A stretch of DNA of 64,000 nt from Candidatus Moranbacteria bacterium GW2011_GWC2_40_12 (GTDB lineage Bacteria > Patescibacteriota > Minisyncoccia > Moranbacterales > UBA11712): positions 135,889 through 199,888 of the forward strand of contig LBYD01000002.1 of assembly GCA_000995965.1 (NCBI GenBank). Direction: 5' to 3'. A program made the position numbers and the translations under genes. The notes below the pieces were generated by a model that worked only from the letters and a program-made list of their open reading frames with translations, made no database searches and was not told where the DNA came from. Position 1 is the stretch's first letter, and the number at the start of each line of letters is the position of its first letter. This document shows positions 7,427 through 26,940 of the stretch, one piece after another.

Positions 7427-7427
7427 T

Positions 7428-9779: not shown

Positions 9780-9822
9780 ACTCGCACCAACCAGGCCGGC
9801 TAAACCAAAGCCCGTGCCTGCG

Positions 9823-9859: not shown

Positions 9860-10054
9860 AAAAAAAATCGGCACACATCTGAAATATGCCGACATTATTC
9901 ATTCTATTTTTGGTCATTAATTATTGTTTTTTTCTTAATTTTTCCATCCCTTCTTCCGCGATTTTGCGAAATTCGTCATAAAATAAATTTTCCATCATCT
10001 TTTCCAGAAGATCGAGCAGTTTTTTTCGGTTTTTGTAAACAAATGCCATATTAG

Positions 10055-10522: not shown

Positions 10523-10526
10523 AAAA

Positions 10527-12074
10527 TTACGCTTTCCTTAAAATTTTAACGATCCCCCTATTGGCATCAACCTCGACTAGATCGCCGTCTTTCAAAATTT
10601 TCGTGGCAATTTTTGTTCCGACGATGCAGGGTTTCTTGAGTTCCCGAGAAACAATCGCCGCGTGCGAGATAATTCCTCCTGTGTCCGTCACGATCGCTGC
10701 CGCTCTTTTGAGACCCATAATCAAATCCGGATTAGTTGCCGAGGAAACCAATATATCCCCGTCTTTTACTTTGGCTGCATCTTTAGCGACAAGAACTATT
10801 TTCACCATTCCTTTAGCTTTTCCTTTATACGCCATCATCCCTTTGAGTTCACCAGTTTTCTCCTGGTCGAACTCTTTGTCGCTTTCTATTTTCAGTTTAG
10901 TAATAATTTCTTTTGCCTCCTTGCCTTCAAAAACTTTTATTCCCCCATTTATTGCGATATAACAACAGCGCCTTGTCCTTTCTTTCGCAATCTTTCGGTA
11001 TTTTTTTGCTTTCCTGTTATTAATCGCATCCTTGATATCTTCGAGCACTAAATATTTAATCTCCTTGGATGTCATCACTAATCTTCTCGCGATCTCATTA
11101 ATTATTTTATCCATGGCGACATATGATTTCTGATAAATTCCTTTTCGGAAATCCTTGATGAACATCATTTCCGCTGAAACTTGAAACGCATACTTCAAAT
11201 TTTCTGGCAGTTTTATTTTTTTTTGAATCCTCTGTTTCTCTTTCCTAATATTTTCATAATGATTCAGTATTATATTTTTCTGCTTCTTGGCGTCCCCTGT
11301 TTTCAGATTTTCGGCAAGCGCCCCAAGAAGATATTCCGCAGTCATGGCCGGTCCGGCATAGGCATATGTCAGCCAACCAAAATCTTTGAGATGTTTTTGA
11401 AATAGCTTATCAACCGACGGATACTTTTCGCTAAAATTTTTGTAATTGTTCTTTTCAATGTCCTGAATGACATTTTTTGATTTTTTGTCGGCCATTATTT
11501 TCAGGAGTAAATCCAACCTGGCAATTTCTTCTTCCTGAACTTCACTTTTCTTTTCGCTGGAGCTAAGAACCGTATAGTAATCACTAAACTTTTTCTCCTG
11601 CCCAAGTTTTTCAAGATACTTTCTAAACTCTGCTATGAGATAATCGCTCAAATAGGCTTTCTCCATCCCATCCATTGACGAAGGGATCCAACCCCAAACT
11701 CTCAAGGTCCGCAGTTTCCCCATATAATCAAGATACAATTGTAATAATTGCTTATCGCTTAATTTTTTTACGTTGGCTATTCTGTCAATGCGTTTGCAGA
11801 ATTTCATCAGTTCATCGCTATACTGATAAATGTTCTTGATAGATTTTCGGAAGAATGCTTTATCATCGATTAACTTTTTCAAAAAACCTTCTCCGACAGC
11901 ATTTGCCGATTCGCGATCATAATACATATGAATTCGGTCCTTTTCAAAATAGACGACAGCTTTTTTCACCACTGCCCTGGAAATTTTTCCTATATCTTTG
12001 GTAATCGTGAGGTCAGAAATATACCATGGGTAGATATACATATTGTCCCGCTCAAAAAGAAGTTTGAGAGCCAT
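10527..12074 (-). CDS. PEP-utilizing mobile domain protein, paralog 6
   Basis: 515 aa with C-terminus GGIISHAAIVSRELKKPCIVGTKIATKILKDGDLVEVDANRGIVKILRKA. Confidence 0.75.
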   Translation of the reverse strand: MALKLLFERDNMYIYPWYISDLTITKDIGKISRAVVKKAVVYFEKDRIHMYYDRESANAVGEGFLKKLIDDKAFFRKSIKNIYQYSDELMKFCKRIDRIANVKKLSDKQLLQLYLDYMGKLRTLRVWGWIPSSMDGMEKAYLSDYLIAEFRKYLEKLGQEKKFSDYYTVLSSSEKKSEVQEEEIARLDLLLKIMADKKSKNVIQDIEKNNYKNFSEKYPSVDKLFQKHLKDFGWLTYAYAGPAMTAEYLLGALAENLKTGDAKKQKNIILNHYENIRKEKQRIQKKIKLPENLKYAFQVSAEMMFIKDFRKGIYQKSYVAMDKIINEIARRLVMTSKEIKYLVLEDIKDAINNRKAKKYRKIAKERTRRCCYIAINGGIKVFEGKEAKEIITKLKIESDKEFDQEKTGELKGMMAYKGKAKGMVKIVLVAKDAAKVKDGDILVSSATNPDLIMGLKRAAAIVTDTGGIISHAAIVSRELKKPCIVGTKIATKILKDGDLVEVDANRGIVKILRKA

Positions 12075-12880: not shown

Positions 12881-12960
12881 AACTCGCGAATGCGGAGCTA
12901 ATGCAATGCGAATAAGTGCGAATTCGCTCAAGTTAGCTTTAATTCGCTCAAATTAGCGAG
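12881..12960. repeat. attcgc-family palindromic repeat element (intergenic yebC-ruvC)
   Basis: aactcgcgaatgcggagctaatgcaatgcgaataagtgcgaattcgctcaagttagctttaattcgctcaaattagcgag, made of left-arm gcgaat units and right-arm attcgc units. Confidence 0.65.
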
Positions 12961-13466
12961 TGCGTATTATTGGAATCGACCCGGGAACGGCCACGACAGG
13001 CTGGGCCGTCGTTGAGGAAGTGAAAAAAAATCCGCGGCTCATTGCTTGCGGGTGCATCAACACGAGCAAATTTAACTCCGACGCGGAGCGGCTGGTTGAA
13101 ATTGGGCGTGATATCGGTTCGCTCATCAAAAAATACAAGCCCGATGAAGCAGCCATTGAGGATCTTTTCTTTTTCAAAAATTTGAAAACCGCCATCACTG
13201 TCGCCCAAGCGCGCGGAGTAATTCTCTACGAAATAAAAAAAAACGGGGTGTCCCTTTCAAATTATACTCCGCTTCAAGTGAAACAAGCCCTCACCGGATA
13301 CGGCCGGGCTGAAAAAAAACAAATTCAGATCATGGTAAAAAATATTTTGAAGCTCCGCTCGGCTCCAAAACCGGACGACGCCGCCGACGCGGTCGCGATT
13401 GCGATATGTCATCTTAACTCGCGAATGAGAGAGCGAATTAATCGCGAATCGGAGCGAACTCGATAA
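12960..13466 (+). CDS. ruvC: crossover junction endodeoxyribonuclease RuvC (GTG start; C-terminal tail encoded by a repeat element)
   Basis: RIIGIDPGTATTGWAVVE.., AIEDLFF.KN and ADAADAVAIAICH motifs. The last ~16 aa (SRMRERINRESERTR) are read from the attcgc repeat at 13416-13522. Confidence 0.85.
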   Translation: MRIIGIDPGTATTGWAVVEEVKKNPRLIACGCINTSKFNSDAERLVEIGRDIGSLIKKYKPDEAAIEDLFFFKNLKTAITVAQARGVILYEIKKNGVSLSNYTPLQVKQALTGYGRAEKKQIQIMVKNILKLRSAPKPDDAADAVAIAICHLNSRMRERINRESERTR

Positions 13467-13522: not shown

Positions 13523-13594
13523 TTTTGTTGACAAAACCGCCCAAAAGCGGTATTTTTTAATCAGTATTTTACCTAAATTTAAGCCAAAAACCAT

Positions 13595-14248
13595 ATGGAC
13601 AACGTAAATCCGTTCGTCACCTTGGCGGCCACTAGCGGAGTGCCCCTTGACACCCTGGTTCTAGTGTTGATTCTTCCCATCATCGTCACAATGATCGCTT
13701 TCTTCCGCCAAGTGATCGGGATCAAAGCTTTCGGCATCTATACGCCGGCTATCATCACTTTTGCCTTGCTTGCCACCAGCCAGCTGAAATACGGAATCAC
13801 GATTTTCGCTACTGTCATTGTCGTTGGAACAATCACTCGTTATCTTCTCAAAAAGGCGAGGCTCCTTTATCTTCCTCGCGTAGCCATCATGATCACCGTG
13901 GTCGGATTTTCAATCCTGCTTCTTCTTTTTGTGGGAGGAGCCTGGAACCGGACCGGGCTTGCGGGCGTGTCCATCTTCCCGATTCTCATTATGATAACAC
14001 TGGTTGAAAAGTTCATCGCCGTTCAAATCGAAAAGGGAAACCGGGCCGCTGTCATCCTCTCGCTCGAGACGCTTTTCATTTCGGTTATCGGCTACTATAT
14101 CGCGAGCTGGCCGCAACTAATCAGAATGATTTTGCACTATCCGTGGATCAGCCTGCTTACCATTCCGATAAACATTTTTTTAGGAAAGTGGACCGGCCTT
14201 CGCCTATCAGAATATTTTCGTTTTAGGCAGATTATCAAACCTAAATGA
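13595..14248 (+). CDS. 7-transmembrane membrane protein (7TM partner of RimK-like ATP-grasp systems)
   Basis: 217 aa with seven hydrophobic segments; sits immediately upstream of, and translationally coupled to (ATGA overlap), the alpha-L-glutamate-ligase-like gene. Confidence 0.5.
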   Translation: MDNVNPFVTLAATSGVPLDTLVLVLILPIIVTMIAFFRQVIGIKAFGIYTPAIITFALLATSQLKYGITIFATVIVVGTITRYLLKKARLLYLPRVAIMITVVGFSILLLLFVGGAWNRTGLAGVSIFPILIMITLVEKFIAVQIEKGNRAAVILSLETLFISVIGYYIASWPQLIRMILHYPWISLLTIPINIFLGKWTGLRLSEYFRFRQIIKPK

Positions 14249-15651
14249 TTTCATATTTCAAGGCTCGACGAAATATATTGGGAATGAACGCCCGCAATCT
14301 TCGGTTTATCCGCCCGAACAATCTTCGGCGAGCCAAAAAAATCGCCGACGACAAGCTTTTGAGCAAAAAAATTCTTGAGAAGGCCGACCTTCCCGTTCCG
14401 AAACTAATCGCGAAAATAGGAAACTTCGAAGAACTTGAAAATTTCGAATGGGGAATTCTTCCGGAAAGCTTTGTCCTGAAGCCCAACCGCGGATTCGGCG
14501 GAGAAGGAATTTTGGTCGTTTACGGAAAGAAGAAACATCTCGAAAATACCTGGATCAAGGCCGACGGTTCAATCGTGACGGCGAATGACATAAAGACGCA
14601 CGTGAGAAATATCTTAGACGGGAGTTTTTCCCTGGCCGGCGTTCCCGACGTTGCTTTTTTTGAGGAAAGACTCAAACTTCTCAAGCTTTTCAAAACTTAT
14701 GCCTACAAAGGAATTCCGGATATCCGAATAATCGTATACAATAAGGTGCCCGTGATGGCGATGCTGCGCCTTCCGACGCGCGAATCAGACGGAAAAGCCA
14801 ATCTCCAGCAGGGAGCGATCGGCGTGGGAATTGATATGGCCACAGGCGTGACTACCACGTCTGTCCTCGGAAAAGGAAAAATGATTGACTATATACCGGG
14901 AACGCGTCTTCTTCTTTCCGGAATCAAAATTCCCTACTGGAAAGATATGCTCCGAATGGCTGTCCGGGCGCAGGAAATTTCCGGCCTGGGGTTTTTGGGC
15001 GCCGACGTTGCCATTGACCGGGACCGGGGACCGGTCTTTTTGGAGCTCAATGCCCGACCGGGGCTTTCCATCCAAATTGCGAACACCGACGGATTGCTGG
15101 GGCGCTTGCGCCGGGTCGAAGATCTCAAGATAAAAACTGTCGAAAAAGGCGTGGCAGTTGGGATGAATCTTTTCGGCGGTGAAATCGAAGATGAGATTGA
15201 AGGAATTTCAGGAAAGAAAATAATTGGAATAATCGAGAAAGTAAGGCTGATCGGAAAAAAGGAAAAAGAAGTCGAAGTCGAGGCGAAAATCGACACAGGC
15301 GCGCAATCATCATCACTGGATATCGACATTGCAACTCAACTGGGTTTTGGAGAAATCGCTGATAAATTTTCAAGCATTGATCTTTCCTCTTATGAAATAG
15401 CCCCTGAAAATGAGAGCCGCATCAAGAAAGATATCCTGGAAAAATACAAGGATTTTGTCCCGGGGCTTGAAGATGTCGCTGTTATTTTTTCCGCCAGCGG
15501 AAATTCGATCCGCCCGGTAGTAAAAATAGAATTTGAGATGGACAAAGAAAGAATTATCTCAAAGATGAATTTGGTGGATCGGAAAAATCTCAAATATCCG
15601 ATGATTATCGGAAAACGCGACCTGAAAAAATTTTTAATCGAAGTGAAATAA
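14245..15651 (+). CDS. alpha-L-glutamate ligase-like (RimK-related) ATP-grasp fused to DUF785 retropepsin-like aspartic protease
   Basis: N-terminus MNARNLRFIRPNN..ADDKLLSKKILEKADLPVP...FVLKPNRGFGGEGILVV...FLELNARPG is RimK-related. C-terminal EVEAKIDTGAQSSSLDIDIA carries the D-T-G-A aspartyl protease motif of the RimB/DUF785 family. Confidence 0.65.
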   Translation: MISYFKARRNILGMNARNLRFIRPNNLRRAKKIADDKLLSKKILEKADLPVPKLIAKIGNFEELENFEWGILPESFVLKPNRGFGGEGILVVYGKKKHLENTWIKADGSIVTANDIKTHVRNILDGSFSLAGVPDVAFFEERLKLLKLFKTYAYKGIPDIRIIVYNKVPVMAMLRLPTRESDGKANLQQGAIGVGIDMATGVTTTSVLGKGKMIDYIPGTRLLLSGIKIPYWKDMLRMAVRAQEISGLGFLGADVAIDRDRGPVFLELNARPGLSIQIANTDGLLGRLRRVEDLKIKTVEKGVAVGMNLFGGEIEDEIEGISGKKIIGIIEKVRLIGKKEKEVEVEAKIDTGAQSSSLDIDIATQLGFGEIADKFSSIDLSSYEIAPENESRIKKDILEKYKDFVPGLEDVAVIFSASGNSIRPVVKIEFEMDKERIISKMNLVDRKNLKYPMIIGKRDLKKFLIEVK

Positions 15652-16625
15652 TGAAAAAAGTTTTGATATTATTCAGCAAAAGCGATTGGAAGACCAGTAC
15701 TCCCCCCAAAGATAAAGCTTACCGTTATTCGTATGAATATTTTTACACGCTTTGCAGAAAAAACAACATTCAAGTGTACCGAGCTTCTTATGAATGGTAT
15801 GACTTCAAGAAAAAGATTTTCAAATATGCTTGGATTTTTGAAAGTGCCGGAAACAATTGGCAAAGAGTCCGGAACATCAAGCCGGACTTTATTTATGACA
15901 AGACAAAGGCACGTCCCGAAATATTTTATAAAAAGGATTTGATAGGTCTAGATTATCCTTTCATAAATCATCTTGAATTCACAAAGATTGTTGACAACAA
16001 GTATACCAACAGCCTTATGTTTTTTAGGTGGAGCAAAAAAGCTTGGCTGGCCCATAATCAAAAGGAGATGAAAAAAATTATTAGGAGCATAAAGACCAGC
16101 AAAATTGTGCTAAAGCCATTGCGCCAGAGCGGGGGTGAAGGTGTTCAAATATTAAATAAGGCGGATGCGTCGAAGTGCCCTAATTTCAATCAGACGCACC
16201 TGTTGCAGGAATTTATCGATTCCTCAGAAGGAGTTCCGGGAGTGGTAAAAGGCATTCATGATCTGAGGCTTATTATGGTTAACAATGAGCTCATATATTC
16301 GTTAATCCGGCAACCTGCCAAAGGCAGTTATCTCGCTAATCTGGCTCAAGGAGGAACAGTGACGTTCATACCATTAAATAAGGTTCCCAGATCTGTCTTT
16401 CCTATTATTAACCAAGCAAAAAAACTTTTTGAATCATTCCGACCTCGAATTTTTTCCATTGATGTTATGTTCGATAAGAAAAAAAAGCCTTGGGTCGTGG
16501 AATTAAATTCAATGCCAGGGCTATATTTTTCTCCAAAAGGAAACCGCTACATGGAAAAGATGTATGCAGCGTTATTAAAAGTTTTTCAGGCTCGCTTAAA
16601 AGATTTATCTGGGAAAAAAATATGA
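15651..16625 (+). CDS. ATP-grasp ligase, YheC/YheD-like (tandem copy A)
   Basis: KIVLKPLRQSGGEGV.., GIHDLRLIMVN.., RQPAKGSYLANLAQGGTV and ELNSMPGL. Confidence 0.6.
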   Translation: MKKVLILFSKSDWKTSTPPKDKAYRYSYEYFYTLCRKNNIQVYRASYEWYDFKKKIFKYAWIFESAGNNWQRVRNIKPDFIYDKTKARPEIFYKKDLIGLDYPFINHLEFTKIVDNKYTNSLMFFRWSKKAWLAHNQKEMKKIIRSIKTSKIVLKPLRQSGGEGVQILNKADASKCPNFNQTHLLQEFIDSSEGVPGVVKGIHDLRLIMVNNELIYSLIRQPAKGSYLANLAQGGTVTFIPLNKVPRSVFPIINQAKKLFESFRPRIFSIDVMFDKKKKPWVVELNSMPGLYFSPKGNRYMEKMYAALLKVFQARLKDLSGKKI

Positions 16626-17581
16626 AAAAAGTTCTCATTCTATATGGGAAAAAAGGCGTAAAGCGACCTCCCTTTGAAAATGATTCCTACCGGATTTCTT
16701 ATGAAATCCTTTACGCCCTTTGTGAGAAAAGAGGAATAAAAATGTTCCGTGCTCCTTATCAAGAATATGACCACAAAAAAAAATATTTCAAGCGGGCTTG
16801 GTTTTTTGACGCGAAACATAAACGCTGGAGCATAACAAAAAATGTCATACCCCATCTTATTTTCGACAAAACTGCGGCAAACTCTCAAGCCGACTGCGAA
16901 AAAGAATCGATCGGGAAAGATTATTTATTTTTCAATGCGCTTGAATTTTCCCAGCTGGTAAGAAATAAACTCGCGATTAGCCTGTTATTTAGCAAATGGA
17001 GCAAAAAAAGCTGGCTCATCGAAAACAAACGCGACTTAAAAAAAATATTACTCAAAATTACCACCGGTAAACTGGTCATCAAGCCGCTAAGGGGCGGCGG
17101 GGGCAAAAATGTCCAGGTACTCGAAAAAAAGGACGCCCTCAAAAACGCTCGCCTAAAAGGTACCTATTTGATTCAGGATTATATTGACTCTTCAGCCGGC
17201 ATTTCCGGCATTAGCAAATCCATGCACGATTTACGGTTAGTTATGATTAACGATAAGATTATCTATTCTTTCGTCCGAGAGCCAAAAGCAGGATGTTTTC
17301 TCGCAAATTGTTCGCAAGGAGGAACTTTGAAAATTGTCCCTTTGAAAGATATTCCGAGGTCTGTTTACCCGATCATTAGCCATGCAACAAAAATGTTCAA
17401 TACTTTTTCTCCCCGATTTTATTCAATTGATCTAATGTTTGACAAAACAAAAAGGCCATGGGTAGTCGAGCTCAATGCCATGCCCGGGCTTAACATATGC
17501 GCTAAGGAAGAGAAGCCATATATTTTACGGTTGTATAAGGAACTAGCCAAGGTTTTTAAGGCTAAAGCAGAATTATGCTAA
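16622..17581 (+). CDS. ATP-grasp ligase, YheC/YheD-like (tandem copy B)
   Basis: Paralog of the preceding gene (KLVIKPLRGGGGKNV, HDLRLVMIN, REPKAGCFLANCSQGGT, ELNAMPGL). Start set at ATG 16622 (MKKVLILYGKKG), which is coupled to the upstream stop; the track ORF begins further upstream at 16490. Confidence 0.6.
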   Translation: MKKVLILYGKKGVKRPPFENDSYRISYEILYALCEKRGIKMFRAPYQEYDHKKKYFKRAWFFDAKHKRWSITKNVIPHLIFDKTAANSQADCEKESIGKDYLFFNALEFSQLVRNKLAISLLFSKWSKKSWLIENKRDLKKILLKITTGKLVIKPLRGGGGKNVQVLEKKDALKNARLKGTYLIQDYIDSSAGISGISKSMHDLRLVMINDKIIYSFVREPKAGCFLANCSQGGTLKIVPLKDIPRSVYPIISHATKMFNTFSPRFYSIDLMFDKTKRPWVVELNAMPGLNICAKEEKPYILRLYKELAKVFKAKAELC

Positions 17582-20136
17582 AAAAAAGACCAAAAATTAT
17601 CAAACGCTGGTTCCTTGAAGGACCAAATAGATACGGAGACCATCCCTCCTTCAGAATCGAGGTACCGGCGCGAAAGGTATCACGGAACTTTGTTCTGATG
17701 AAATCAAAAAAATTGTCGCTCGACGCGAAAGATATGGTTTTCTCAACGAAATCCGATATTTCTTCCTGGATGTTTTCAGTAAAAACTCTCACGCGTCTCG
17801 CGGGCATTGCACTCGAATATCATGAACACTCCGCCATTCAAACAGGAAATGTTTTTGTGGTTTTTAGGGCAGATTCGGCGGAAATAGGAAACACAATCGC
17901 TTGCGAAGCCGCAGCATGGATCAATTCCGGTTTCCAAAAAAACGTTTCTCCATTCGTGACAAGATTGAAAATTGCCGCAAAAAAATATAGCACGGGACCA
18001 ATCACAGGAAGATACCTGCTCCAAGCGAAAAGAAGAGGCATCCCCTCTATCATACTTGCCAAAGAACCAAATTTACTTCAATTTGGATATGGAAGGCGGC
18101 TCAAGAAAGCATTGTCAGCTTCCACCAGCAACACCTCGAGAATCGGATCAAAAATCACCTCGAATAAAAACACGCTCAATGTTTTGCTAAATAAAATTGA
18201 TATTCCGGTTTCATTATCTGAGAAAATTTCCAATCTTTCCGAATTATATTCACTACTCAAAAAATTTAATCTTCCAGTTGTAATAAAACCGGCTGACTCT
18301 ACCGAAGGAAAAGGTGTTTCACTGAACATCCGGGATATTGGAGCTGCAAAAAAAGCATACCGCCGCGCAAGAAAGTTCAGCCGAAATGTCATAATGGAAA
18401 ATCAAATCGAAGGCCGATATTACAGGATAACGTTTGTCGGCGGCAAGATGATAGCATGTGCTAAGGCTAGTCCAGCCTGCGTGATCGGCAATGGAAGAAA
18501 AAAGCTTTCTCATTTAATCAGGGAAGAAAACGCAAAGCCATATCGCCAAACAAACAACAAAGACGCCGCTTTTTACAAAATTGAACTGACGCATAAACTT
18601 AAAACCATTCTTTCTTTCCAGGGAGTTGACTTGAATTCAATTATCCCGAAAATGCGAAAGATATTTCTTTCCTACTCGGGCGTTGACGGCGGAGAATGGA
18701 TAGAAGACAACGCTTCAGTTCATCCTGAAAATATTGATCTGATCAAACGCGCGCTGTTATTTGCCGAACTAGACATTGCCGGAGTGGATATTATCTCGCC
18801 GGATATTTCCAAGCCGCTGGCGTCCAACGGAGGAAAAATAATTGAGATCAATGCTGGCCCCGACACAAACATCCACGCCAACGTTAACCGCGGCAAAAAA
18901 ATATTCGTTGAAAAAGCAATCTTAGATTACCTGTATCCTTATCCCGAAAAAGGACGTATTCCTATTGTGAGCGTCACCGGAACAAACGGAAAAACGACCA
19001 CTTCTAAGCTCATTGCCCATCTCATTAATAATCCCTCCCGGTGGACTGTGGGCCTTGCCACTTCGGATAACAAATATATTAACGGCGAGCTTGTGGCGAA
19101 AGGTGACAAATCAGGCTTTCTCAGCGCCCGCTCACTTCTTATTAATCCTGAAATTGACGCGGCTGTCCTTGAAACTTGCCATATCTTGGGCATAGACATG
19201 CGGGGTTTGGGATATGACTGGAGTGATGCAAGTGTTATAACAAATGTAACTGACGACCATATTGGAACTTTCTGCACTCGAACTGCCGGAGATTTGTTTA
19301 GGATAAAGTCGGTCGTGGCAAAACGAACAAAAAAGAAAGGGTATCTTATTCTTAACGCCGACGACAAAAATGCGCCTCGAATGGCAAGACACACAAAAGC
19401 TACGATCGCTTATTTTAGCTTGGATTCCCATAATCATCAAATAAAATCACATTCCGCCAAGGGGCTACCCGTCTATTACCTGCGGAATGAAAAACTTTGG
19501 GAAGAGCGCGAGGGAAAGAAGACCTTATTGGCTGAGGTAAGTTGTATTCCTATTGCTTTTTCTGGAAAAGCCGAGTTTAATATCCAAAATTGTCTTGGAG
19601 CTCTAGCGGCCGTCAGATTGGTTTTTGGATCTCGTTTTCCTATCGAGAAAATTCGAAACAAATTATATTCTTTTGGCCGACATCCTCAATCCAATCCGGG
19701 ACGCTTCAATCTAATAAGAAAAAAAAATTATCACGTAGTTGTTGACTATGCTCATAATCCCGACGGTTATAAAAAGACCATAGAACTGGCAAGCAAAATC
19801 CCCCATAAAAGATTTGTCGGAATAATTAAGTCGGCCGGCGACCGTCCCGAAGGTTTTATTCACGAACTGGGAAAAATTTCCGGAAACAGCTTCGACTATA
19901 TTTTCATTAAAGAACCATCACCTGAAAAAATTAGGAACAGAGAAAAAGGGGTAGTCTCAAATCTTTTGCAAAAAGGCGTTCTTTCTACCGGATTTCCAAA
20001 AAAATTGACACGGATTATCCATGACGAAAAAACCGCTGTCAACAAAGCTCTGCAGCAATCCCGAGGCGGCGATCTTTTGGTTGTATTTGCACATGATATT
20101 GATAATGTAATTGAACAAATAAACAAATATCCCTAG
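17575..20136 (+). CDS. cphA: cyanophycin synthetase-like (ATP-grasp + Mur-ligase domains)
   Basis: 853 aa. N-terminus ..LEGPNRYGDHPSFRIEV. ATP-grasp: LPVVIKPADSTEGKGVSLN...RITFVGGKMIACAKASPACVIGNGRKKLSHLI. Mur-ligase: YPYPEKGRIPIVSVTGTNGKTTT...DYAHNP. Confidence 0.65.
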   Translation: MLKKRPKIIKRWFLEGPNRYGDHPSFRIEVPARKVSRNFVLMKSKKLSLDAKDMVFSTKSDISSWMFSVKTLTRLAGIALEYHEHSAIQTGNVFVVFRADSAEIGNTIACEAAAWINSGFQKNVSPFVTRLKIAAKKYSTGPITGRYLLQAKRRGIPSIILAKEPNLLQFGYGRRLKKALSASTSNTSRIGSKITSNKNTLNVLLNKIDIPVSLSEKISNLSELYSLLKKFNLPVVIKPADSTEGKGVSLNIRDIGAAKKAYRRARKFSRNVIMENQIEGRYYRITFVGGKMIACAKASPACVIGNGRKKLSHLIREENAKPYRQTNNKDAAFYKIELTHKLKTILSFQGVDLNSIIPKMRKIFLSYSGVDGGEWIEDNASVHPENIDLIKRALLFAELDIAGVDIISPDISKPLASNGGKIIEINAGPDTNIHANVNRGKKIFVEKAILDYLYPYPEKGRIPIVSVTGTNGKTTTSKLIAHLINNPSRWTVGLATSDNKYINGELVAKGDKSGFLSARSLLINPEIDAAVLETCHILGIDMRGLGYDWSDASVITNVTDDHIGTFCTRTAGDLFRIKSVVAKRTKKKGYLILNADDKNAPRMARHTKATIAYFSLDSHNHQIKSHSAKGLPVYYLRNEKLWEEREGKKTLLAEVSCIPIAFSGKAEFNIQNCLGALAAVRLVFGSRFPIEKIRNKLYSFGRHPQSNPGRFNLIRKKNYHVVVDYAHNPDGYKKTIELASKIPHKRFVGIIKSAGDRPEGFIHELGKISGNSFDYIFIKEPSPEKIRNREKGVVSNLLQKGVLSTGFPKKLTRIIHDEKTAVNKALQQSRGGDLLVVFAHDIDNVIEQINKYP

Positions 20137-20140
20137 TGTT

Positions 20141-21634
20141 ATGGAAAAAAAGGCAAAGCCGAGTGGTACTTTCATTCGCGATATTGAAAACCTCAAAACG
20201 CTATTTTCGAGAAACAAAATAAAGATTTTTGGAATCGGGGCTTACCCTTCAACGCGAAGCGAGATCCGCCCCTTGATAGATGATTCCGAAATCATCTGCG
20301 CGAATCAGACCGGCGAATTCGCTTCGGTAAGCCAAAAAATAAAAGTGTCCTGCTTTCGGATAAAAAACAGGCTATCCAGTCTATATCCCGTGCAAAATCC
20401 AGAAGAAATCCTTTCAAAAAAAAGCGTAATCGCCCATATCAGGAAAAATTCAGCGGGCAAAAGAATCGGGATATACATATACAAACCGTCTTTAAAAATA
20501 GAAAAGATTTGTCGGGCAAATGGCTGGATTTTGATCGCAAACCGAATTTCCGTTTTTGACAAACTGGCTGGTAAAGACGAGGCTTGCCGCATTTTCCAAA
20601 AAATAGGAAAAAATCGAGATTTTCAAACAGTACCCCTAAACAGTCTTGAGAAAAAATTACCCGGTTTATTTTCAAGATTTGGAGACAAGATTGTTTTGCA
20701 ATTCCCGCGAGAGGGCGGAGGACGAGGCACTTTCTTTTTCCGCCGCGAAGATTCGAAAAATATAAGTTCGGAAATAGCAAAAAAAAGGAAAGGTTCGGAG
20801 ATAAAAAATTTTTCAAATAGAGTTTTGGTCAACGCTTATATTAAGGGGCCTTCTTTGAGCATCAGCGGCTGCATAACAAAAAGCAACGGCATTCTTTGCG
20901 ACAGCCTTCGCTATCAGCTGATCGACATCGCCGAGGCGAAAAAGATCAACTCCGCCGGAGTATTTTGCGGAAACGACTGGACGCTTGCGAAAAATATTCC
21001 CGCTTTCCTCGACAAACAAGCAAAAAAAATCGCCGTCCTAGTCGGCAATGTCCTAAAATCTGAAGGAGCACTCGGCATGTTTGGAATAGATTTTATCCGA
21101 TGCCGAGAAAGCGATACTCTGGTTCCTATTGAAATAAATCCTCGCCTGCTCGGCACGACCCCTGTTTCAGTTTATGTCCATTTACAAAAAGAACAAATCC
21201 CTCTTGAGGCTTTCCATCTGCTGGAATTCTTGAACATACCCTACAGAAAATTAAAAACTTTACCCAAGGAAAGTTTTTTATCGGCTCATGGGTGCCATTT
21301 GATACTATATAATCAGACTAGCGGCCGCGTTCGCGTCGGCAACGAGTTAAAGGGCGGCGTCTACGCGTTAACGAGGGCTTCGCGGCCCGCGCTCAAATAT
21401 TTGCGCCCTGGTTTTGAGCTTAGCGATATCAAGAATATGAATGAGTTTATTCTTACGGATGGAATGCCTCTTAAGAAGCTGGTCTACCAAAAAAATAAAA
21501 AACTTTTGAGGATTATTTCCAAAAAATCTCTAGTTAAAAAAAGCGCCGCCGAATTAAACTCCTGGGGGAAAAAAGTAGTCAGCCAAGTGCGGAGCAACCT
21601 TAAGATTCATCCGCTAAAAAAAATCAATAGGTAA
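20141..21634 (+). CDS. ATP-grasp domain protein (fifth ATP-grasp of the cluster)
   Basis: 497 aa with GMFGIDFI...PIEINPRLLGTTP, a typical ATP-grasp C-terminal Mg/ATP region. Confidence 0.5.
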   Translation: MEKKAKPSGTFIRDIENLKTLFSRNKIKIFGIGAYPSTRSEIRPLIDDSEIICANQTGEFASVSQKIKVSCFRIKNRLSSLYPVQNPEEILSKKSVIAHIRKNSAGKRIGIYIYKPSLKIEKICRANGWILIANRISVFDKLAGKDEACRIFQKIGKNRDFQTVPLNSLEKKLPGLFSRFGDKIVLQFPREGGGRGTFFFRREDSKNISSEIAKKRKGSEIKNFSNRVLVNAYIKGPSLSISGCITKSNGILCDSLRYQLIDIAEAKKINSAGVFCGNDWTLAKNIPAFLDKQAKKIAVLVGNVLKSEGALGMFGIDFIRCRESDTLVPIEINPRLLGTTPVSVYVHLQKEQIPLEAFHLLEFLNIPYRKLKTLPKESFLSAHGCHLILYNQTSGRVRVGNELKGGVYALTRASRPALKYLRPGFELSDIKNMNEFILTDGMPLKKLVYQKNKKLLRIISKKSLVKKSAAELNSWGKKVVSQVRSNLKIHPLKKINR

Positions 21635-21647
21635 CTCTATTTTTCTT

Positions 21648-23036
21648 ATGGAAAAGCCAAGTATTTTCAGTCAATCATATCTGGAGAGACGTGATCCGAA
21701 AGCTTACGATAAACAATGGCGCCATTTAATTAACCTTTGTCGTTCCTATAACGATCCTTTTACTTATTTAGGGGGCGAAGAAAAATACCGCAAACAGCAG
21801 AAAGATGATTTTTTATCTGGTAAAATTGAAAATCCGGTTCTTGATTATCCGGATATCAATATCGAAGATATAGACAGACGAGAAAAAAAGCTCCTTGAAA
21901 TAAAAGAATACATACTGAAAAAGGAGAAGAGGGAATTCGTTCGCCAGGCATATAAATGGAGAATAAATGAATTAGTGGCCGGCTTTAGAATGCTAAAGGC
22001 CACCGCCTCGGGAAACATGAAAAGATTCCAGCGCTATACCGAATATATCTACGGCAATCCTTCCCGAGATATTTTTTCCTATTCGGTAGAAAAGATTAGA
22101 GCCAACCTGGAAAATTATCTTGACTCGGATAATCTGGACCTGCAGAGCGCTGCCCAAAATCTTTTTGACGCGCTTCCGAAAGATCTTCCCGAGGCTAAAG
22201 TGATTCATTTGCCTGGCCAAGACGTGATTTCTAACGCGAAAAAAATTATCGATGAAGAATTCAGCAATCTATTCGAAATGCCTTCGGAAAAAAAAGAGCT
22301 CGACGCTGAAGATATTTGTCTCATCGCTTCTCAAATTATTAAAGATAAAAAGGCTTTCGACTGGAAAGCGATACTAATCGACGGAGGCAGCGGAAGCAGT
22401 CTGTCAGTGGATCAAGAAAGAAAACAATTTAAAATTCCAAAAGCAAAGACTGTTTCGCCTTCCGAATTTACAGGCACCGCTCGTCATGAAGCGGGCCGTC
22501 ATTTTTTCAGAAGAATTGAGGGTGATCGGAGCCGCTTGCGGCTGTTGGGAATAGGTCTCGACAGATATGACCGAGGGGAAGAAGGAGTCGCCACTGCCAC
22601 AGAACAAGCGGCAGAAGAACGAATGGATGATTTTGCTGGTCTCGCGAGCCATCTCGCGATCAGTTTGGCCATCGGACTTGACGGCAAACCACGAAACTTT
22701 AGGGATACTTATGAATGGATGAAAAAATACTTTACATTTCTCAAAGTTAAAAACGGAAAGAGTTTTTCCTCCGCTGAAACCGAAGCGCGATCGAATGCCT
22801 GGGCAATTTGCATTCGAACCTTTCGCGGAACAAATTGTTCCACTCCCGGCGTTTGTTTCACGAAGGATATCGTGTACAGAGAAGGCAACATAGAAACATG
22901 GGGAATCCTTGAAGAAAATCCTGAAGAAGCTCATCGTTTTAGTGTGGGGAAATACGACCCAGCCAATATGCGGCATCTCTGGATTCTTGATCAAATGGCT
23001 ATAGAAGATCAGGATTTAGAATATTTAGAGAAATAG
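21648..23036 (+). CDS. DUF1704 / QEGLA-family (MATCAP-like) putative metallo-carboxypeptidase
   Basis: 462 aa with an HEAGRH (H-E-x3-H) motif and a GEEGVATATEQ segment resembling the EEGLA signature. Confidence 0.5.
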   Translation: MEKPSIFSQSYLERRDPKAYDKQWRHLINLCRSYNDPFTYLGGEEKYRKQQKDDFLSGKIENPVLDYPDINIEDIDRREKKLLEIKEYILKKEKREFVRQAYKWRINELVAGFRMLKATASGNMKRFQRYTEYIYGNPSRDIFSYSVEKIRANLENYLDSDNLDLQSAAQNLFDALPKDLPEAKVIHLPGQDVISNAKKIIDEEFSNLFEMPSEKKELDAEDICLIASQIIKDKKAFDWKAILIDGGSGSSLSVDQERKQFKIPKAKTVSPSEFTGTARHEAGRHFFRRIEGDRSRLRLLGIGLDRYDRGEEGVATATEQAAEERMDDFAGLASHLAISLAIGLDGKPRNFRDTYEWMKKYFTFLKVKNGKSFSSAETEARSNAWAICIRTFRGTNCSTPGVCFTKDIVYREGNIETWGILEENPEEAHRFSVGKYDPANMRHLWILDQMAIEDQDLEYLEK

Positions 23037-23150
23037 TGTATTATATTGACATAGGCTCAATTTTGATAGAAAATTGAGACTTACCGAATTCGTAATATAT
23101 CCCAAGCCATAGTAATATCTATTTTATCCTGTGGTACGGGATCAGCAAGA

Positions 23151-25385
23151 ATGAAAAACGAACTCGTGGATAACACGAAAAATGCTTTGAAAAAGCCAAA
23201 AAAGAAGCGGAAATGGCTTCGGCGGATTTTCAAAATTTTTGTTTGGTGCTTTGTCGCCGGGCTGCTTTTAGCTATAGGCGTTTTTGCCTATTATGCCAAA
23301 GATTTGCCTAGTCCCGGAAAACTCAACAAGAGGCAAGTCGTCGAATCTACCAAGATATACGACCGCACGGGAGAGCACCTTCTCTATGAAATCCACGGCG
23401 AGGAAAAACGCACCACTATCCCCCTAAAAGACATGGGCGAAGTCATCAAGGCCGCCACTCTTTCTGCCGAAGACCAGAGCTTTTATCAGCATCACGGAAT
23501 TTATTTCAAATCTATCGCGCGGGCCGCGATTTATGATCTTATCGGCCGCCAAGTCAGCCAGGGAGGATCGACCATCAGTCAGCAGCTAATCAAAAACACG
23601 GTACTTACAAACGAAAAAACTTTCACCCGCAAAGTAAAAGAAGTGATTCTTTCGGTCGAGCTCGAGCAAAGATTTTCCAAAGACGAAATTCTCGAGATGT
23701 ATCTCAACGAGATTCCTTATGGCTCCAATGCCTATGGGGTTCAGGCGGCTGCTCAGACTTTTTTCGGAAAAGACGCTAAGAGCCTTACTCTGGCTGAAGC
23801 AGCCCTTCTTGCTTCCCTTCCGAAAGCTCCAACCTATTACTCCCCTTATGGCTCAAACACAGATGACTTGAGAGGCCGGCAGGAGTACGTCTTGGACCAG
23901 ATGGCAAAACTTGGCTACATCACCAGAGAAGAGGCAGAAGGCGCCAAAGAAATTGATATAATTTCCGAAGTCAGACCCTTTCAGGAAAGCATCCAAGCGC
24001 CCCACTTTGTGATGTATGTGAAAGATCTTTTAGTGAACAAGTACGGCGAACAGCAAGTTGAAGAGGGCGGAATGAAAGTATTTACCACTCTTGATTGGGA
24101 CAAGCAGCAAATTGCAGACGAGGCGGTAAAAAAGGGAGTCGCGAATAACTCCAAGTATAAAGCCTCAAACGCGGCTCTCGTCGCTATTGATCCAAAGACG
24201 GGACAAATCCTGGCCATGGTCGGTTCCCGCGATTATTTTGACAAAACCATTGACGGAAACGTGAATGTTGCTATCCGCGACCGTCAACCTGGATCAAGTT
24301 TCAAGCCCTATGTTTACGCAACCGCTTTCAAAAAAGGCTACACCCCGAATACCATGCTTTTTGATGTTGAAACAAATTTTGGGACGAAGGAGAAGCCTTA
24401 TGCTCCTCAAAATTATTCGAATAATTTCAGCGGTCCGGTGAAAATGAAAGAGGCGCTTGCGAGATCCTTGAATATCCCGGCTGTGAAAACCCTTTACCTG
24501 GCCGGCGTGCAAAATTCGGTCAATACGGCCCAATCAATGGGAATCACTACTCTCAAGAACCCAAGCCGCTACGGTCTGGCTTTGGTTCTCGGCGGCGGGG
24601 AAGTCAAGCTCGTTGACCACGTGAACGCGTTCGGGACATTCGCGACAGGAGGAGTCAGACATGACAAGACAGCCATTCTCAAAATCACCTACTCTCAGGG
24701 AAACCTTCTGGACGAATATAAAAATTCAGCCGGGGAAAAAGTGCTGGATCAGGATATTTGCGCCAAAATTGATTCTATTCTTTCCGATAACAGCCTGCGC
24801 TCATCTGTTTTCGGCTCGAACAGCCCTCTCCGATTCGACAGCCGCCCAGTAGCCGTGAAAACCGGGACTACCAATGAATGGCGGGATGCCTGGACAGTTG
24901 GATATGCGCCAAATCTCGTAGCCGGCGTTTGGGCGGGAAACAACAACAACGCACCGATGGCACAAGGGTCCGATGGAGTGTATGTCGCCGCGCCAATTTG
25001 GCGGGAATTTATGGATAGGGCGTTTTCCAATATGGCCATTGAAAAATTTCCTGAAGTGAAAGACGAAAAAACCGGAAAAGCTATTCTCGACGGGACGGTG
25101 CAGGGAGAGGAGAAAGAGGTAACTGTTTGCAAAATCAGTGACGGAAAATATTGCCTTGCCAACGATAATTGTCCAGACAACGAAAAGAGGCGACACAAAA
25201 AATTCTTTTCGGCCCATTCCATCTTATATTGGATTGACAAAGACAACCCCCGCGGAGATGCCCCTAAACAGCCTCAAAAGGATCCTCAGTTTTCCGCTTG
25301 GGAAAAGGGAGTTCAGAAGTGGGCAGAGAAAAAAGAACTTGATGTTCAAGAAAATGTTGAGGAATGCAAGTCCAGTGATTTTTAA
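23151..25385 (+). CDS. class A penicillin-binding protein (PBP1A; transglycosylase + transpeptidase)
   Basis: EDQSFYQHHGI...GGSTISQQLIKN is a GT51 transglycosylase; SGSSFKPYVY is the transpeptidase SxxK motif; an N-terminal TM anchor is present. Confidence 0.9.
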   Translation: MKNELVDNTKNALKKPKKKRKWLRRIFKIFVWCFVAGLLLAIGVFAYYAKDLPSPGKLNKRQVVESTKIYDRTGEHLLYEIHGEEKRTTIPLKDMGEVIKAATLSAEDQSFYQHHGIYFKSIARAAIYDLIGRQVSQGGSTISQQLIKNTVLTNEKTFTRKVKEVILSVELEQRFSKDEILEMYLNEIPYGSNAYGVQAAAQTFFGKDAKSLTLAEAALLASLPKAPTYYSPYGSNTDDLRGRQEYVLDQMAKLGYITREEAEGAKEIDIISEVRPFQESIQAPHFVMYVKDLLVNKYGEQQVEEGGMKVFTTLDWDKQQIADEAVKKGVANNSKYKASNAALVAIDPKTGQILAMVGSRDYFDKTIDGNVNVAIRDRQPGSSFKPYVYATAFKKGYTPNTMLFDVETNFGTKEKPYAPQNYSNNFSGPVKMKEALARSLNIPAVKTLYLAGVQNSVNTAQSMGITTLKNPSRYGLALVLGGGEVKLVDHVNAFGTFATGGVRHDKTAILKITYSQGNLLDEYKNSAGEKVLDQDICAKIDSILSDNSLRSSVFGSNSPLRFDSRPVAVKTGTTNEWRDAWTVGYAPNLVAGVWAGNNNNAPMAQGSDGVYVAAPIWREFMDRAFSNMAIEKFPEVKDEKTGKAILDGTVQGEEKEVTVCKISDGKYCLANDNCPDNEKRRHKKFFSAHSILYWIDKDNPRGDAPKQPQKDPQFSAWEKGVQKWAEKKELDVQENVEECKSSDF

Positions 25386-25430
25386 AAAGGGCTATATCCT
25401 GAAATCCCTCCCGTATATCTGGGGGGATTT

Positions 25431-25788: not shown

Positions 25789-26940
25789 CTAGTTTCGAAT
25801 CGGCATTATGATATGAAGATAATTTTCATCCAATTTTTCTTTTTCCAGCACCTCCCGGAAAATTACCGGCCCGAAACTGTCATTAAAACCGATATAGACC
25901 ATGTTATTTGAAAAAGAGTTGAGGGCGTCCACAAGATAACGGTTATTAAAAGCTATTATATTTTCTCCCTTGGACTTGCCTTGACAAGGAACTTCGGCAA
26001 TATTTTCACCGGTTTCAACTGACTGGGATTCGATTTTCATTTTGCCGCTGTCTCCTTTTATGCAAAGTTTCACTTCGCGGCTTTTGCTGTCAGAAAAAAT
26101 ACTGGCTGTCCGAACCGCTTTGACTAAATCATCCCGCCCGACAAATACGCTCGAAGAAAATTCTTTTGGTATGACTTGCTTGTATTCTGGGTATTTTCCA
26201 TCAATCAGCCGTGAAACAAACACAACTTCATCGATTTCAAAAAAAATCTGGCTTTCACCGATATAAACCTTTATGCGGCCGCTTTCTTCGCTTATGCTCC
26301 TCGTCACCTCCTGCAAAGTTTTGGCTGGCACAATGATGGAGGAGTTTTTTGAAATAAATTTTTGGTAATTTGCTCCTATATCATTTTTTTCCAGCTTTAT
26401 TTTGGCCTCCGCCAAACGAAAGCTATCCGTAGCCGCAAGAACGAGGCCATCTTTCTCAAAACCGAAATAAACTCCTGTCAATTCTTGCCTCGTCTCTGAA
26501 ATTGCGGCCGAAGCAATCACTTTAGCGGCTTTATTTTGAAAAACCGGCCCATCAATTTCAAAAAGATGCTCTGATTGGGGCTTGGGTATGATTGGAAAAT
26601 CTTTGGCATCAACCCCTTTTATAACCGCCCGACTTCCTTCGCTTGTCAGATATAGCGTTTGATTTTTTGCTTCAATACTCATTTTTGATCCATCTGGAAT
26701 ATTACTCAAATAACTTCCCGCAATTCTTCCCGGAACAGCGATTTTTCCTTCTTTTTCAATTTTTGCCCGAAGCGAACAAACTACGCCAATTTCAAGATTT
26801 GTCGCTGATACTTTTAGCCGGCTTTTTTCCACTTCCAGCAGGATATTTGATAAAATAGGCAGAGTGAGATTTTTGCCTATTATTTTTTCAGCAATTAAAA
26901 TCCCTTTTTTAAAATTTTCTGACAAAGATTGCAATTTCAT
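25789..26940 (-). CDS. dnaN: DNA polymerase III beta sliding clamp
   Basis: 383 aa; the N-terminus reads NLTLPILSNILLEVEKSRLKVSATNLEIG. Confidence 0.9.
   Translation of the reverse strand: MKLQSLSENFKKGILIAEKIIGKNLTLPILSNILLEVEKSRLKVSATNLEIGVVCSLRAKIEKEGKIAVPGRIAGSYLSNIPDGSKMSIEAKNQTLYLTSEGSRAVIKGVDAKDFPIIPKPQSEHLFEIDGPVFQNKAAKVIASAAISETRQELTGVYFGFEKDGLVLAATDSFRLAEAKIKLEKNDIGANYQKFISKNSSIIVPAKTLQEVTRSISEESGRIKVYIGESQIFFEIDEVVFVSRLIDGKYPEYKQVIPKEFSSSVFVGRDDLVKAVRTASIFSDSKSREVKLCIKGDSGKMKIESQSVETGENIAEVPCQGKSKGENIIAFNNRYLVDALNSFSNNMVYIGFNDSFGPVIFREVLEKEKLDENYLHIIMPIRN

Follow-up and report, generated by a model that had tools for sequence, protein, structure and literature searches.

Within a 64,000-nucleotide stretch of contig LBYD01000002.1 (positions 135,889 to 199,888; the whole stretch is hereafter the window) from Candidatus Moranbacteria bacterium GW2011_GWC2_40_12, one gene encodes a protein that resembles CphA1, the cyanophycin synthetase. 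CphA1 joins amino acids into a polymer independently of any template and has two ligase sites that use ATP; to our knowledge, it is among very few template-free amino-acid polymerases, and the sole product chemistry that we know for it is an Asp backbone with Arg or Lys branches. The reading favored here, at somewhat better than even odds, is that of a catalytically competent, re-specified CphA1-type polymerase, which would make a non-cyanophycin, possibly anionic, peptide polymer. The product is probably an amino-acid polymer other than the nitrogen store cyanophycin, because the residues that recognize Asp are replaced, as are some of those that contact the Arg-bearing polymer, and because the gene lies in a variable island of ligase genes. 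The source organism belongs to the ultra-small bacteria of the Patescibacteria, or Candidate Phyla Radiation (CPR), in agreement with the minimal-genome context that had been supposed in a preliminary description of this DNA.

Domain architecture of the CphA-like protein

The gene (window 17575-20136, + strand) is one ATG-to-stop open reading frame (ORF) of 853 codons. The motifs on which the preliminary description relied are all present: KPADSTEGKGV at residues 238-248, VGGKMIACAKASPACVIGNG at 288-307, IPIVSVTGTNGKTTT at 462-476 and DYAHNP at 724-729. Pfam matches comprise Mur_ligase_M (467-680), Mur_ligase_C (709-838) and a weak ATP-grasp (198-353), and the NCBIfam model TIGR02068, "cyanophycin synthetase", aligns to residues 72-851 (E=1e-206). 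The best solved relatives are the CphA1 enzymes of Trichodesmium and Synechocystis (PDB chains 7wac and 7lg5, E~1e-120, matching from about residue 127 on). An AlphaFold2 model computed from a 40-sequence alignment (pLDDT 89.5, pTM 0.84) superposes on full-length TeCphA1 (7wae_A) with a template-modeling (TM) score, TMq, of 0.91 over 888 alignment columns that cover the N domain; the scores are 0.55 to CphA2 and 0.36 to MurE. The ORF, the family matches and the model bear out the full CphA architecture claimed earlier and, as far as the model goes, the three-domain N/G/M arrangement of CphA1 is real, N domain included. The domains are:

17575-17994, + strand: CphA-like N domain (residues 1-140), with the fold of the CphA1 N domain and about 20 residues shorter
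17995-18939, + strand: CphA-like G domain, an ATP-grasp (residues ~141-455)
18940-20136, + strand: CphA-like M domain, Mur-ligase-like (residues ~456-853 plus stop)

Architecture and fold are shared with SuCphA1 of Synechocystis (7LG5) and TeCphA1 of Trichodesmium (7WAE), sequence identity is 30-38% over the G and M domains, and the residues for ATP, Mg and catalysis agree fully at the two ligase sites. Because architecture, fold and these residues are shared, the enzyme very probably follows the same two-site, primer-extending chemistry. The protein misses both equivalog cut-offs for CphA1 (TIGR02068, 688.5 vs. 850 bits; NF010623, 655.1 vs. 877 bits), and both alignments begin only at residue 71-72. 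The CphA1 N-domain family PF18921, which canonical CphA1s carry, has no match in it at E<=0.001, nor is one precomputed for clade members P0001-P0009.

Paralogy with the peptidoglycan ligases MurE/MurF, combined with an unrelated N-terminal extension, was the other explanation raised in the preliminary description. Mur_ligase_M and Mur_ligase_C do match MurE models at E=1e-33, and the gene of a class A penicillin-binding protein (PBP1A family) adjoins the island. The Mur ligase models, however, cover only residues 451-837, that is, the central and C-terminal domains, at 116 bits vs. cut-offs of at least 257, and their N-terminal UDP-MurNAc-binding domain is not matched in the 853-residue protein. 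Hidden Markov model and PDB searches give E values of 1e-206 and 1e-120 for CphA1 vs. 1e-33 and 1e-11 for MurE. Because the N domain as well as the rest of the chain superposes on CphA1 (TM 0.91 over the whole chain vs. 0.36 for MurE), the MurE/MurF explanation is ruled out, with a probability close to nil.

Catalytic and specificity residues in a rare clade

Eight full-length members of the clade (the window protein and seven relatives) were aligned with 111 close canonical CphA1s and, in a second alignment, with 121 diverse CphA1 representatives of 50%-identity clusters. Residues were mapped manually onto TeCphA1 numbering from the PDB-match alignment, and their roles were taken from the structural literature (PMC9427784, PMC9262961, PMC10273328). 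The window G domain retains the residues for catalysis, ATP and Mg (K198, K238, R284, D405, E424 and N426); in TeCphA1 numbering, K220, K261, R309, D431, E450 and N452 are kept in 8/8 clade members. The window M domain likewise retains the P-loop TGTNGKTT, E533 (for E558), D561-H562 (for D585-H586) and DYAHNP, and the P-loop (K499), E558 and D585/H586 are kept throughout the clade (8/8). D585/H586 are catalytic residues of the M domain, and E607 contacts cyanophycin (PMC9262961).

The specificity residues present a different picture. In TeCphA1, the substrate Asp is bound by R323 and N394 at its beta-carboxylate and by R458 at its alpha-carboxylate, and the terminal beta-Asp-Arg dipeptide is bound by E215 at its Arg side chain (PMC9427784); the equivalent of E215 in CphA2 is D212 (PMC10273328). 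The comparison with characterized CphA1 and CphA2 that had been proposed earlier, with attention to the Asp- and Arg-binding residues, shows the Asp site replaced in every clade member and E215 and E607 turned into K or R:

R323 (beta-carboxylate of Asp): present in 111/111 close and 111/121 diverse canonical CphA1s; A or S in 8/8 clade members
N394 (beta-carboxylate of Asp, G-omega loop): canonical 111/111 and 110/121; deleted in 8/8
S396 (lining of the Asp pocket): canonical 111/111 and 109/121; A or V in 8/8
R458 (alpha-carboxylate of Asp): canonical 111/111 and 109/121; N in 8/8
E/D215 (salt bridge with the terminal unit, at its Arg side chain): canonical 111/111 and 77/121; K or R in 8/8
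E607 (M-domain cyanophycin contact): canonical 109/111 and 71/121; K or R in 8/8
R561 (beside the Mg ligand E558): canonical 111/111 and 116/121; H in 8/8

In the window G domain itself, K193 stands for E215, E244 for H/Q267, A298 for R323, D430 for G456 and N432 for R458, and the loop reads LSYSG--VDGG (N394 deleted, S396 to V). In the M domain, ETAR-GG has become ETCHILG (R561 to H), E607 is K583, and the conserved KE--DxDLRGR is replaced by KEPxxEKIRGR.

The losses are focused. Among 86 columns conserved at >=90% in 102 diverse canonical representatives, the clade retains 69 and fully loses 12; eight of these 12 lie in or adjoin the Asp site of the G domain; the remaining four belong to the M-domain core, where three are neighbors of the Mg ligand E558. 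General divergence is an insufficient explanation, because the window protein lies at a mean Kimura distance of 1.49 from canonical CphA1s, a modest increase over the 1.21 found among canonical CphA1s themselves. Furthermore, the substituted residues K297, K329, D371, D430 and N432 are each invariant within the clade (8/8), which argues for selection rather than decay. Focused losses, invariant replacements and modest divergence are together, at the level of the alignments, the signature of a specificity shift under selection, from which we infer a change of substrate to monomers other than Asp and Arg.

The N domain has been altered as well. In CphA1 it carries Cx19HxxEH, a primer-generating, metallopeptidase-like site (PMC9262961); the motif is present in 83% of CphA1s and is thus typical, not obligatory. 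In 8/8 clade members its residues (H57, C59, H79 and H83) are substituted and the region is shortened. The clade N domain has motifs of its own, WFLEGxNRYG and SSWE, and hhalign finds clade and canonical N domains collinear over 127 columns, with weak scores (probability 33%, E=4.5e-4). The clade is also strongly basic: the window protein has a net charge of +58 and an isoelectric point (pI) of 9.9, clade pI values range from 8.1 to 9.9 vs. 6.5±1.2 for canonical CphA1s, and the charge of the G domain lies between +11 and +23 in 8/8 clade members vs. -1.4±4.8 in canonical enzymes. In sum, the clade differs from CphA1 in the replacement of all seven listed residues, in its charge and in a shorter N domain that lacks Cx19HxxEH.

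Re-tooling has a precedent in CphA2 (7TA5, 8FXH), a CphA1 derivative adapted to the polymerization of beta-Asp-Arg dipeptides, which shows that the family can be re-tooled. Its G domain is homologous to that of the window protein, to which its TM score is only 0.55. In CphA2 the M domain is truncated and inactive, and the loop residues N393/S395 are kept, as is the acidic D212 (PMC10273328), whereas the window protein has a complete M domain with intact catalytic residues and has lost the loop residues.

These data bear directly on the reading of the gene as a genuine, fast-evolving cyanophycin synthetase, which would supply a host-dependent cell with a store of multi-L-arginyl-poly-L-aspartate that the neighboring retropepsin and MATCAP peptidases or an unlinked cyanophycinase would degrade. 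Its full CphA1 architecture and intact catalytic residues are those expected of such an enzyme, the clade-conserved K297 and K329 might replace R323, and the annotation agrees: the GenBank entry for the identical protein (KKT33463.1), found on 31 contigs, reads "Cyanophycin synthetase" of Candidatus Moranbacteria GW2011_GWC1_45_18 / GWC2_40_12, and the IMG label is the same. However, R323, N394, S396 and R458 are lost in 8/8 clade members and kept in ~90-100% of comparably divergent CphA1s, the acidic Arg contact E215 is now K/R, and the TIGR02068 score stays at 688.5 of the 850 bits demanded. Moreover, the gene is an optional cassette of a ligase island, other variants of which have no CphA homolog, which is unexpected for a gene of a storage polymer. 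The genuine-synthetase reading is judged unlikely, and the label on these Moranbacteria proteins is probably a mis-annotation, which would wrongly imply nitrogen storage in metabolic reconstructions of CPR bacteria.

The lack of a nearby cyanophycinase carries little weight for either reading. As had been noted earlier, no CphB-type S51 peptidase lies close to the gene: the families Peptidase_S51 (CphB), IadA and IaaA have no match in the 50 ORFs of >=130 amino acids that were scanned in the 64 kb window or among the genes called at 12 related loci. A cyanophycinase is recognizable in 658 of 1,614 CphA1-encoding genomes, and 956 (59%) are without one (PMC10206079), a figure that also favors the genuine-synthetase reading. 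Because most cphA1 genomes thus have no recognizable cyanophycinase, the missing cphB is weak evidence of anything, and its absence as a sign of something unusual was rejected. Where both genes are recognizable, cphA1 usually clusters with the cyanophycinase gene (PMC10206079), whereas the partners of the window gene are Rlo-like. From the missing cphB the preliminary description had drawn two alternatives. The evidence favors a different polymer or primer substrate, given the replaced Asp site (8/8), the missing primer site, the K/R at E215 and E607 (positions that vary among diverse CphA1s as well) and the intact catalysis residues; an alternative route of cyanophycin degradation is not needed, its cue being weak.

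The clade is rare. A word-indexed search of 5.8 billion clusters returned nine relatives at 51-100% identity and then dropped to canonical CphA1s at <=38%; seven of the nine are full-length (850-853 amino acids), two are fragments, and those with a named source are Patescibacteria. When 1.84 billion 50%-identity representatives were searched exhaustively with HMMER, the result was one full-length clade representative (1474 bits), a 251-residue fragment (P0346, 58% identical over residues 603-852) and a best out-of-clade match of 454 bits. By these searches, the clade is tiny and isolated, a single 50%-identity cluster. A contig pattern scan with the window protein found only canonical CphA1s, at 31-39% identity and almost all from Firmicutes/Clostridia; its back-translated patterns were too window-specific to inform on the distribution of the clade among GTDB species. 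In a literature search, nothing relevant was found on CPR or Moranbacteria cyanophycin synthetases or on "cyanophycin synthetase-like" or "CphA3" enzymes, and no CphA1-type enzyme with a rebuilt Asp site was found described.

A second CphA-like lineage is represented by P0242, a protein of 887 amino acids that is 38% identical to the window protein, has a pI of 9.8 and lacks HxxEH. Its gene (positions 8001-10664 of locus L037) lies inside the L037 counterpart of the window island, RuvC-PKD-7TM-RloC/A (L037 5000-12079), and is followed downstream by genes for a 417-residue Mur ligase and a 51-residue Zn-ribbon protein. The latter was considered as a LysW-type carrier and rejected, its C-terminus being basic (…KMRRGR) and not acidic. 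P0242 and the window clade group together in 80/100 neighbor-joining bootstraps. Because P0242 keeps R323, N394 and S396 and shares R458N and R561H with the window clade, it may represent an evolutionary intermediate.

Six further CphA1-like representatives (P0338, P0369, P0324, P0353, P0385 and P0373) deviate at two or three of the positions R323, N394 and R458. These proteins are arginine-rich and lysine-poor with an acidic pI, a composition typical for high-GC organisms. Because they deviate too, re-specification of CphA1 may have occurred more than once, and outside CPR as well.

The ligase island and its variants

The CphA-like gene belongs to a run of genes (window 13595-23036) that all lie on one strand with overlapping or nearly abutting ends. 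The neighbors named in the preliminary description, other ATP-grasp ligases and DUF1704/DUF785 peptidases, are borne out by Pfam and NCBIfam. Besides the CphA-like gene itself, the island and its borders comprise:

12960-13466, + strand: ruvC (NF000711, 220 bits, above cut-off), the conserved left boundary of the island, outside the system
13528-13556, + strand: promoter-like site TTGACA-17-TATTTT (consensus scan, weak), in the 128 bp that separate ruvC from the first gene of the island
13595-14248, + strand: seven-transmembrane (7TM) protein of 217 amino acids, first core gene (PF14402 7TM_transglut, E=4e-29)
14245-15651, + strand: fusion of an RloC-like ATP-grasp and a retropepsin, 468 amino acids, second core gene (PF14397, E=3.5e-70; PF05618, E=1.4e-10)
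15651-16625, + strand: RimK-like ligase 1, 324 amino acids, variable cassette (PF08443 RimK, E=1.5e-14; net charge +32)
16622-17581, + strand: RimK-like ligase 2, 319 amino acids, paralog of ligase 1 (PF08443, E=1e-13)
20141-21634, + strand: AG3, an ATP-grasp_3 ligase of 497 amino acids, optional cassette (PF02655, E=1.3e-9; net charge +48)
21648-23036, + strand: MATCAP/DUF1704 metallocarboxypeptidase, 462 amino acids, optional cassette (PF08014, E=6.7e-19)
23151-25385, + strand: class A penicillin-binding protein, PBP1A family (TIGR02074, 531.7 vs. a cut-off of 508.75), the usual right boundary of the island

Promoter-like sites are only modestly more frequent in this region than in shuffled sequence. 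The PBP1A gene has a promoter-like site of its own (23046-23074) and a terminator-like hairpin (25407-25426). No tRNA or Rfam element was found in the window.

The core resembles the Rlo system of Pseudomonas aeruginosa, which consists of the secreted retropepsins RloA, the membrane protein RloB and the ATP-grasp RloC. It governs survival under hypo-osmotic conditions, cell shape, the formation of biofilms and resistance to antibiotics, and Rlo mutants have envelope phenotypes; its natural product is unknown (PMC12239564). RloA cleaves the poly-Glu tails made by RimK, which are the substrates of RimB, and its substrate channel is positively charged (PMC12239564). The core partners in the window are homologous to all three components (a PF14402 7TM protein, an RloC-like ligase and a PF05618 retropepsin with DTG). 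They differ in several respects. RloB of Pseudomonas combines a 7TM region with an inactive periplasmic transglutaminase domain, whereas no transglutaminase or other extracytoplasmic domain is present in the 217-residue window protein, which aligns only to positions 309-507 of the RloB model NF052267 (79.9 vs. a cut-off of 900 bits); a hydropathy scan yields seven partly overlapping hydrophobic windows, which do not give an exact helix count. RloA is separately encoded and secreted by means of a signal peptide, whereas the window protease is fused to the C-terminus of the ligase, a position that precludes a signal peptide, so that it is cytoplasmic like RimB. Finally, a variable set of additional ligases, the CphA-like enzyme among them, comes after the core in the window.

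The 468-residue fusion consists of an "alpha-L-glutamate ligase-like" ATP-grasp (ATPgrasp_ST, residues ~8-295; TIGR02291, 298.8 vs. a cut-off of 314.2, model positions 9-294 of 317) and a RimB/RloA-like (DUF785) retropepsin (residues ~322-467), whose DTG lies at residue 350 (nucleotides 15292-15300). The C-terminal domain scores 42.8 vs. a cut-off of 210 with the RloA3 model NF052264 and matches the PDB entries 9g58 and 2pma. The fusion has at least 7,910 homologs (E<=1e-20), of which the best 120 show 66-91% identity and come, where a source is named, almost exclusively from Patescibacteria, one being labeled Bathyarchaeia. Both in spread and in conservation the fusion far exceeds the CphA-like gene; since CPR proteins are generally divergent, this implies an important function of the Rlo-like core in CPR.

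Both RimK-like ligases follow directly on the core. The best PDB matches of the first are RimK of Pseudomonas and Escherichia coli (7qys, 5zct, 4iwx). The true start of the second is the ATG at 16622, which overlaps the preceding stop as ATGA, and not the TTG at 16490 given by the ORF finder; its ortholog in locus L004 has 318 amino acids. AG3 belongs to a small family (46 homologs, the closer source-named ones from Patescibacteria) and has no match in a PDB sequence search. The MATCAP/DUF1704 protein carries HEAGRH (HExxxH) at residue 280 (nucleotides 22485-22502). Four proteins of the operon are very basic, namely AG3, the CphA-like protein and the two RimK-like ligases; the core fusion is also basic, but falls within the range of other window proteins.

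The island context of the CphA-like gene is conserved. In six of six loci of clade relatives (L001-L006) and in the window, it sits after the 7TM gene and the ligase-retropepsin fusion, and in L001, L002, L003 and L006 it follows the fusion directly to give a three-gene core. The 7TM gene lies immediately upstream in all relatives examined, and the 7TM proteins of L001, L036 and L037 bear N-terminal PKD domains. ruvC holds the same position in most relatives but not in L005, and close relatives have the same island between ruvC and the PBP1A gene, near dnaN and dnaA, with differing cassettes. AG3 accompanies the CphA-like gene in three of seven places examined (window, L004 and L005). The MATCAP/DUF1704 gene recurs in L004 and also in L034, from which the CphA-like gene is absent and where the cassette contains three RimK-like genes and YdjC besides MATCAP. 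L033 and L035 combine RimK-like genes with a methyltransferase, and another variant has other ATP-grasps and AG3. Since the cassettes differ among relatives and other variants have no CphA homolog, the CphA-like gene is one of the optional modules of an island that has an Rlo-like core and a variable set of ligases, and this is the most informative aspect of its context.

One variant, L036 (1305-15310), contains the Rlo-like core with a PKD-7TM protein, a RimK-like gene, a stand-alone Mur ligase and AG3, together with three family-4 glycosyltransferases and one family-2 (cellulose-synthase-like) glycosyltransferase, which suggests a glycopeptide or envelope product. Its stand-alone Mur ligase was considered as a split-off CphA-like M domain and rejected (BLASTP, 26% over 183 residues, E=0.002). 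The Rlo-like core would thus make or handle a peptide-type polymer, because CPR islands add peptide ligases, and once glycosyltransferases, to the same core.

The composition of the operon recalls the enzymes of the tubulin code (TTL/TTLL and MATCAP), in that RimK/TTL-like ATP-grasp ligases are paired with a PF08014 HExxxH metallopeptidase. In the tubulin code a ligase and a carboxypeptidase act on acidic peptide tails; the likeness is at the family level only, and there is no tubulin in the bacterial setting. The operon might accordingly write and erase an amino-acid tail on the C-terminus or a side chain of a specific protein, as RimK/RimB do on S6 and TTL/TTLL/MATCAP on tubulin, with the CphA-like enzyme adding branched units. 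RimK is the best PDB match of the RimK-like ligases, with marginal similarity to TTL/TTLL7, the PF08014 family is by name one of protein C-terminal carboxypeptidases, and RimB trims the Glu tails made by RimK (PMC12239564). Very basic ligases could bind ribosomes or RNA, and an N domain without a primer-making site fits an external acceptor. Yet the island has no conserved gene for a candidate acceptor (the C-terminus of the L037 Zn-ribbon protein is basic, not LysW-like acidic), and the invariant partner is a 7TM membrane protein. The glycosyltransferases of L036, of processive type and others, point to a polymer or envelope product, and CphA1-type enzymes are known solely to elongate a free polymer. 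Modification of a protein acceptor therefore appears improbable.

The predicted polymer pathway and other loci of the window

The favored reading, a re-specified polymerase, can be extended to a pathway, which is speculative as to what the polymer is, what charge it bears, whether the core ligase primes it and where in the cell it ends up. By homology to CphA1, the G domain would phosphorylate the C-terminal carboxylate of the growing peptide (through R284, K198, K238, D405, E424 and N426) and then add an incoming amino acid that is recognized otherwise than Asp. The M domain would phosphorylate a carboxylate on the new unit and attach a second amino acid, so that the product would be a branched or alternating polyamide other than multi-L-arginyl-poly-L-aspartate. 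The N domain would be unable to cut its own primers, and the primer or acceptor would come from outside the enzyme. The most plausible source is the RloC-like ligase-retropepsin, a "make and trim" pair like RimK plus RimB. Because the self-priming site is missing and the gene has a constant place after the 7TM gene and the fusion, the CphA-like enzyme may extend or decorate a peptide that the core makes and trims. RimK-type enzymes make oligo-alpha-glutamate, so the core product is perhaps oligo-alpha-glutamate-like.

The polymer might be anionic, as the contacts of reversed charge, the very basic CphA-like, RimK-like and AG3 proteins and the poly-Glu theme of RimK, RimB and MATCAP would suggest. 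The 7TM protein might handle it at the membrane as an envelope or surface polymer, an idea that draws on the variable cassette, the PKD-bearing 7TM variants, the L036 glycosyltransferases and the PBP1A neighbor. Trimming or turnover would likely fall to the retropepsin domain and the MATCAP carboxypeptidase. On this view the operon as a whole would not be a nitrogen store but one version of a peptide-polymer pathway that is associated with the membrane and varies from strain to strain among Patescibacteria.

Several points weigh against this reading or parts of it. All statements about substrates are drawn from homology, and the case for M-domain specificity is one of conservation patterns only, because free Arg is not seen in the CphA1 structures considered. 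R or K occurs at E215 in 6/121 and at E607 in 21/121 diverse CphA1s; since these positions are not universally acidic, the charge reversal was downgraded from proof of an anionic product to a suggestive argument. The proteome at large is already rather basic, and for P0007 the pI is 8.1 and the M domain has a net charge of -8. The acidic new conserved residues of the G-omega region (D371, E374 and D430) could point to a basic incoming amino acid, and K297 and K329 might be stand-ins for R323, in which case Asp or Glu would be possible. The sister grouping of P0242 and the window clade could reflect long-branch or compositional attraction, and the adjacency of the PBP1A gene may be mere synteny.

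A bolder form of the favored reading is offered tentatively, as a possibility well short of an even chance. The island, arranged as RuvC-[7TM + RloC-like ligase-retropepsin + interchangeable ligases of ATP-grasp, Mur and CphA type ± glycosyltransferases]-PBP1A near the replication origin, would make a (glyco)peptide polymer for the envelope or a host-contact surface independently of ribosomes and of non-ribosomal peptide synthetases. Within it, the CphA1-derived enzyme would make a new branched poly-amino acid, for example an anionic "inverse cyanophycin" that the core ligase primes and whose backbone is decorated with Glu or Asp, and the 7TM protein would serve as anchor or exporter. If this is true, it would be a new natural biopolymer and would indicate the product type of the uncharacterized Rlo systems of Pseudomonas and Vibrio. 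A homolog that keeps both catalytic engines with a rewritten substrate site is a clonable candidate for a new biopolymer, and the clade offers a natural experiment on how CphA1 encodes specificity, of use for designer polyamides.

The surroundings of the island contain further loci. Replication genes lie to its right, with dnaN at 25789-26940 (- strand) and dnaA at 27214-28608 (- strand), followed by yidC (29289-30011, + strand) and a KH/R3H Jag-like gene (30026-30514, + strand). The minimum of the cumulative GC skew falls at ~12-28 kb of the window, consistent with an origin there. A cluster that looks like a surface-glycan locus lies ~7 kb away from the island: a Polysacc_synt flippase-like gene (30610-32076) and a family-2 glycosyltransferase gene (32092-32880), then, side by side, two Wzy_C (O-antigen ligase/polymerase-like) paralogs (32814-35461, + strand).

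On the other side (128-12074, - strand), six tandem paralogs of 351-515 amino acids (128-1576, 1573-2628, 4482-5951, 5951-7426, 7428-8861 and 10527-12074) have a C-terminal PEP-utilizers mobile (phosphohistidine swivel) domain as their sole recognizable part. Their N-terminal regions (five of ~400 residues, ~270 in the 351-residue protein) have no credible Pfam match even at E<=1. The paralogs are interleaved with riboflavin genes, one of which (3706-4485, - strand) fuses a riboflavin kinase (flavokinase) domain to a PD-(D/E)XK nuclease-superfamily domain (PF13366); L033 and L034 encode the flavokinase as a separate protein of 109 amino acids. Similar swivel-domain arrays occur beyond yebC-ruvC in these two loci, with a separate PPDK_N gene in L033, and the array may be a second variable island flanking the same locus.

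Farther downstream, a type IV secretion/conjugation-like gene cluster occupies ~41300-55500 (- strand). It includes genes for an SLT transglycosylase (41311-42345), a VirB4/TraG-like ATPase (47172-49016) and a PrgI-family protein (50283-50699), along with large ORFs that have no Pfam family, such as 42752-45814 (1020 amino acids) and 52298-54457 (719 amino acids).

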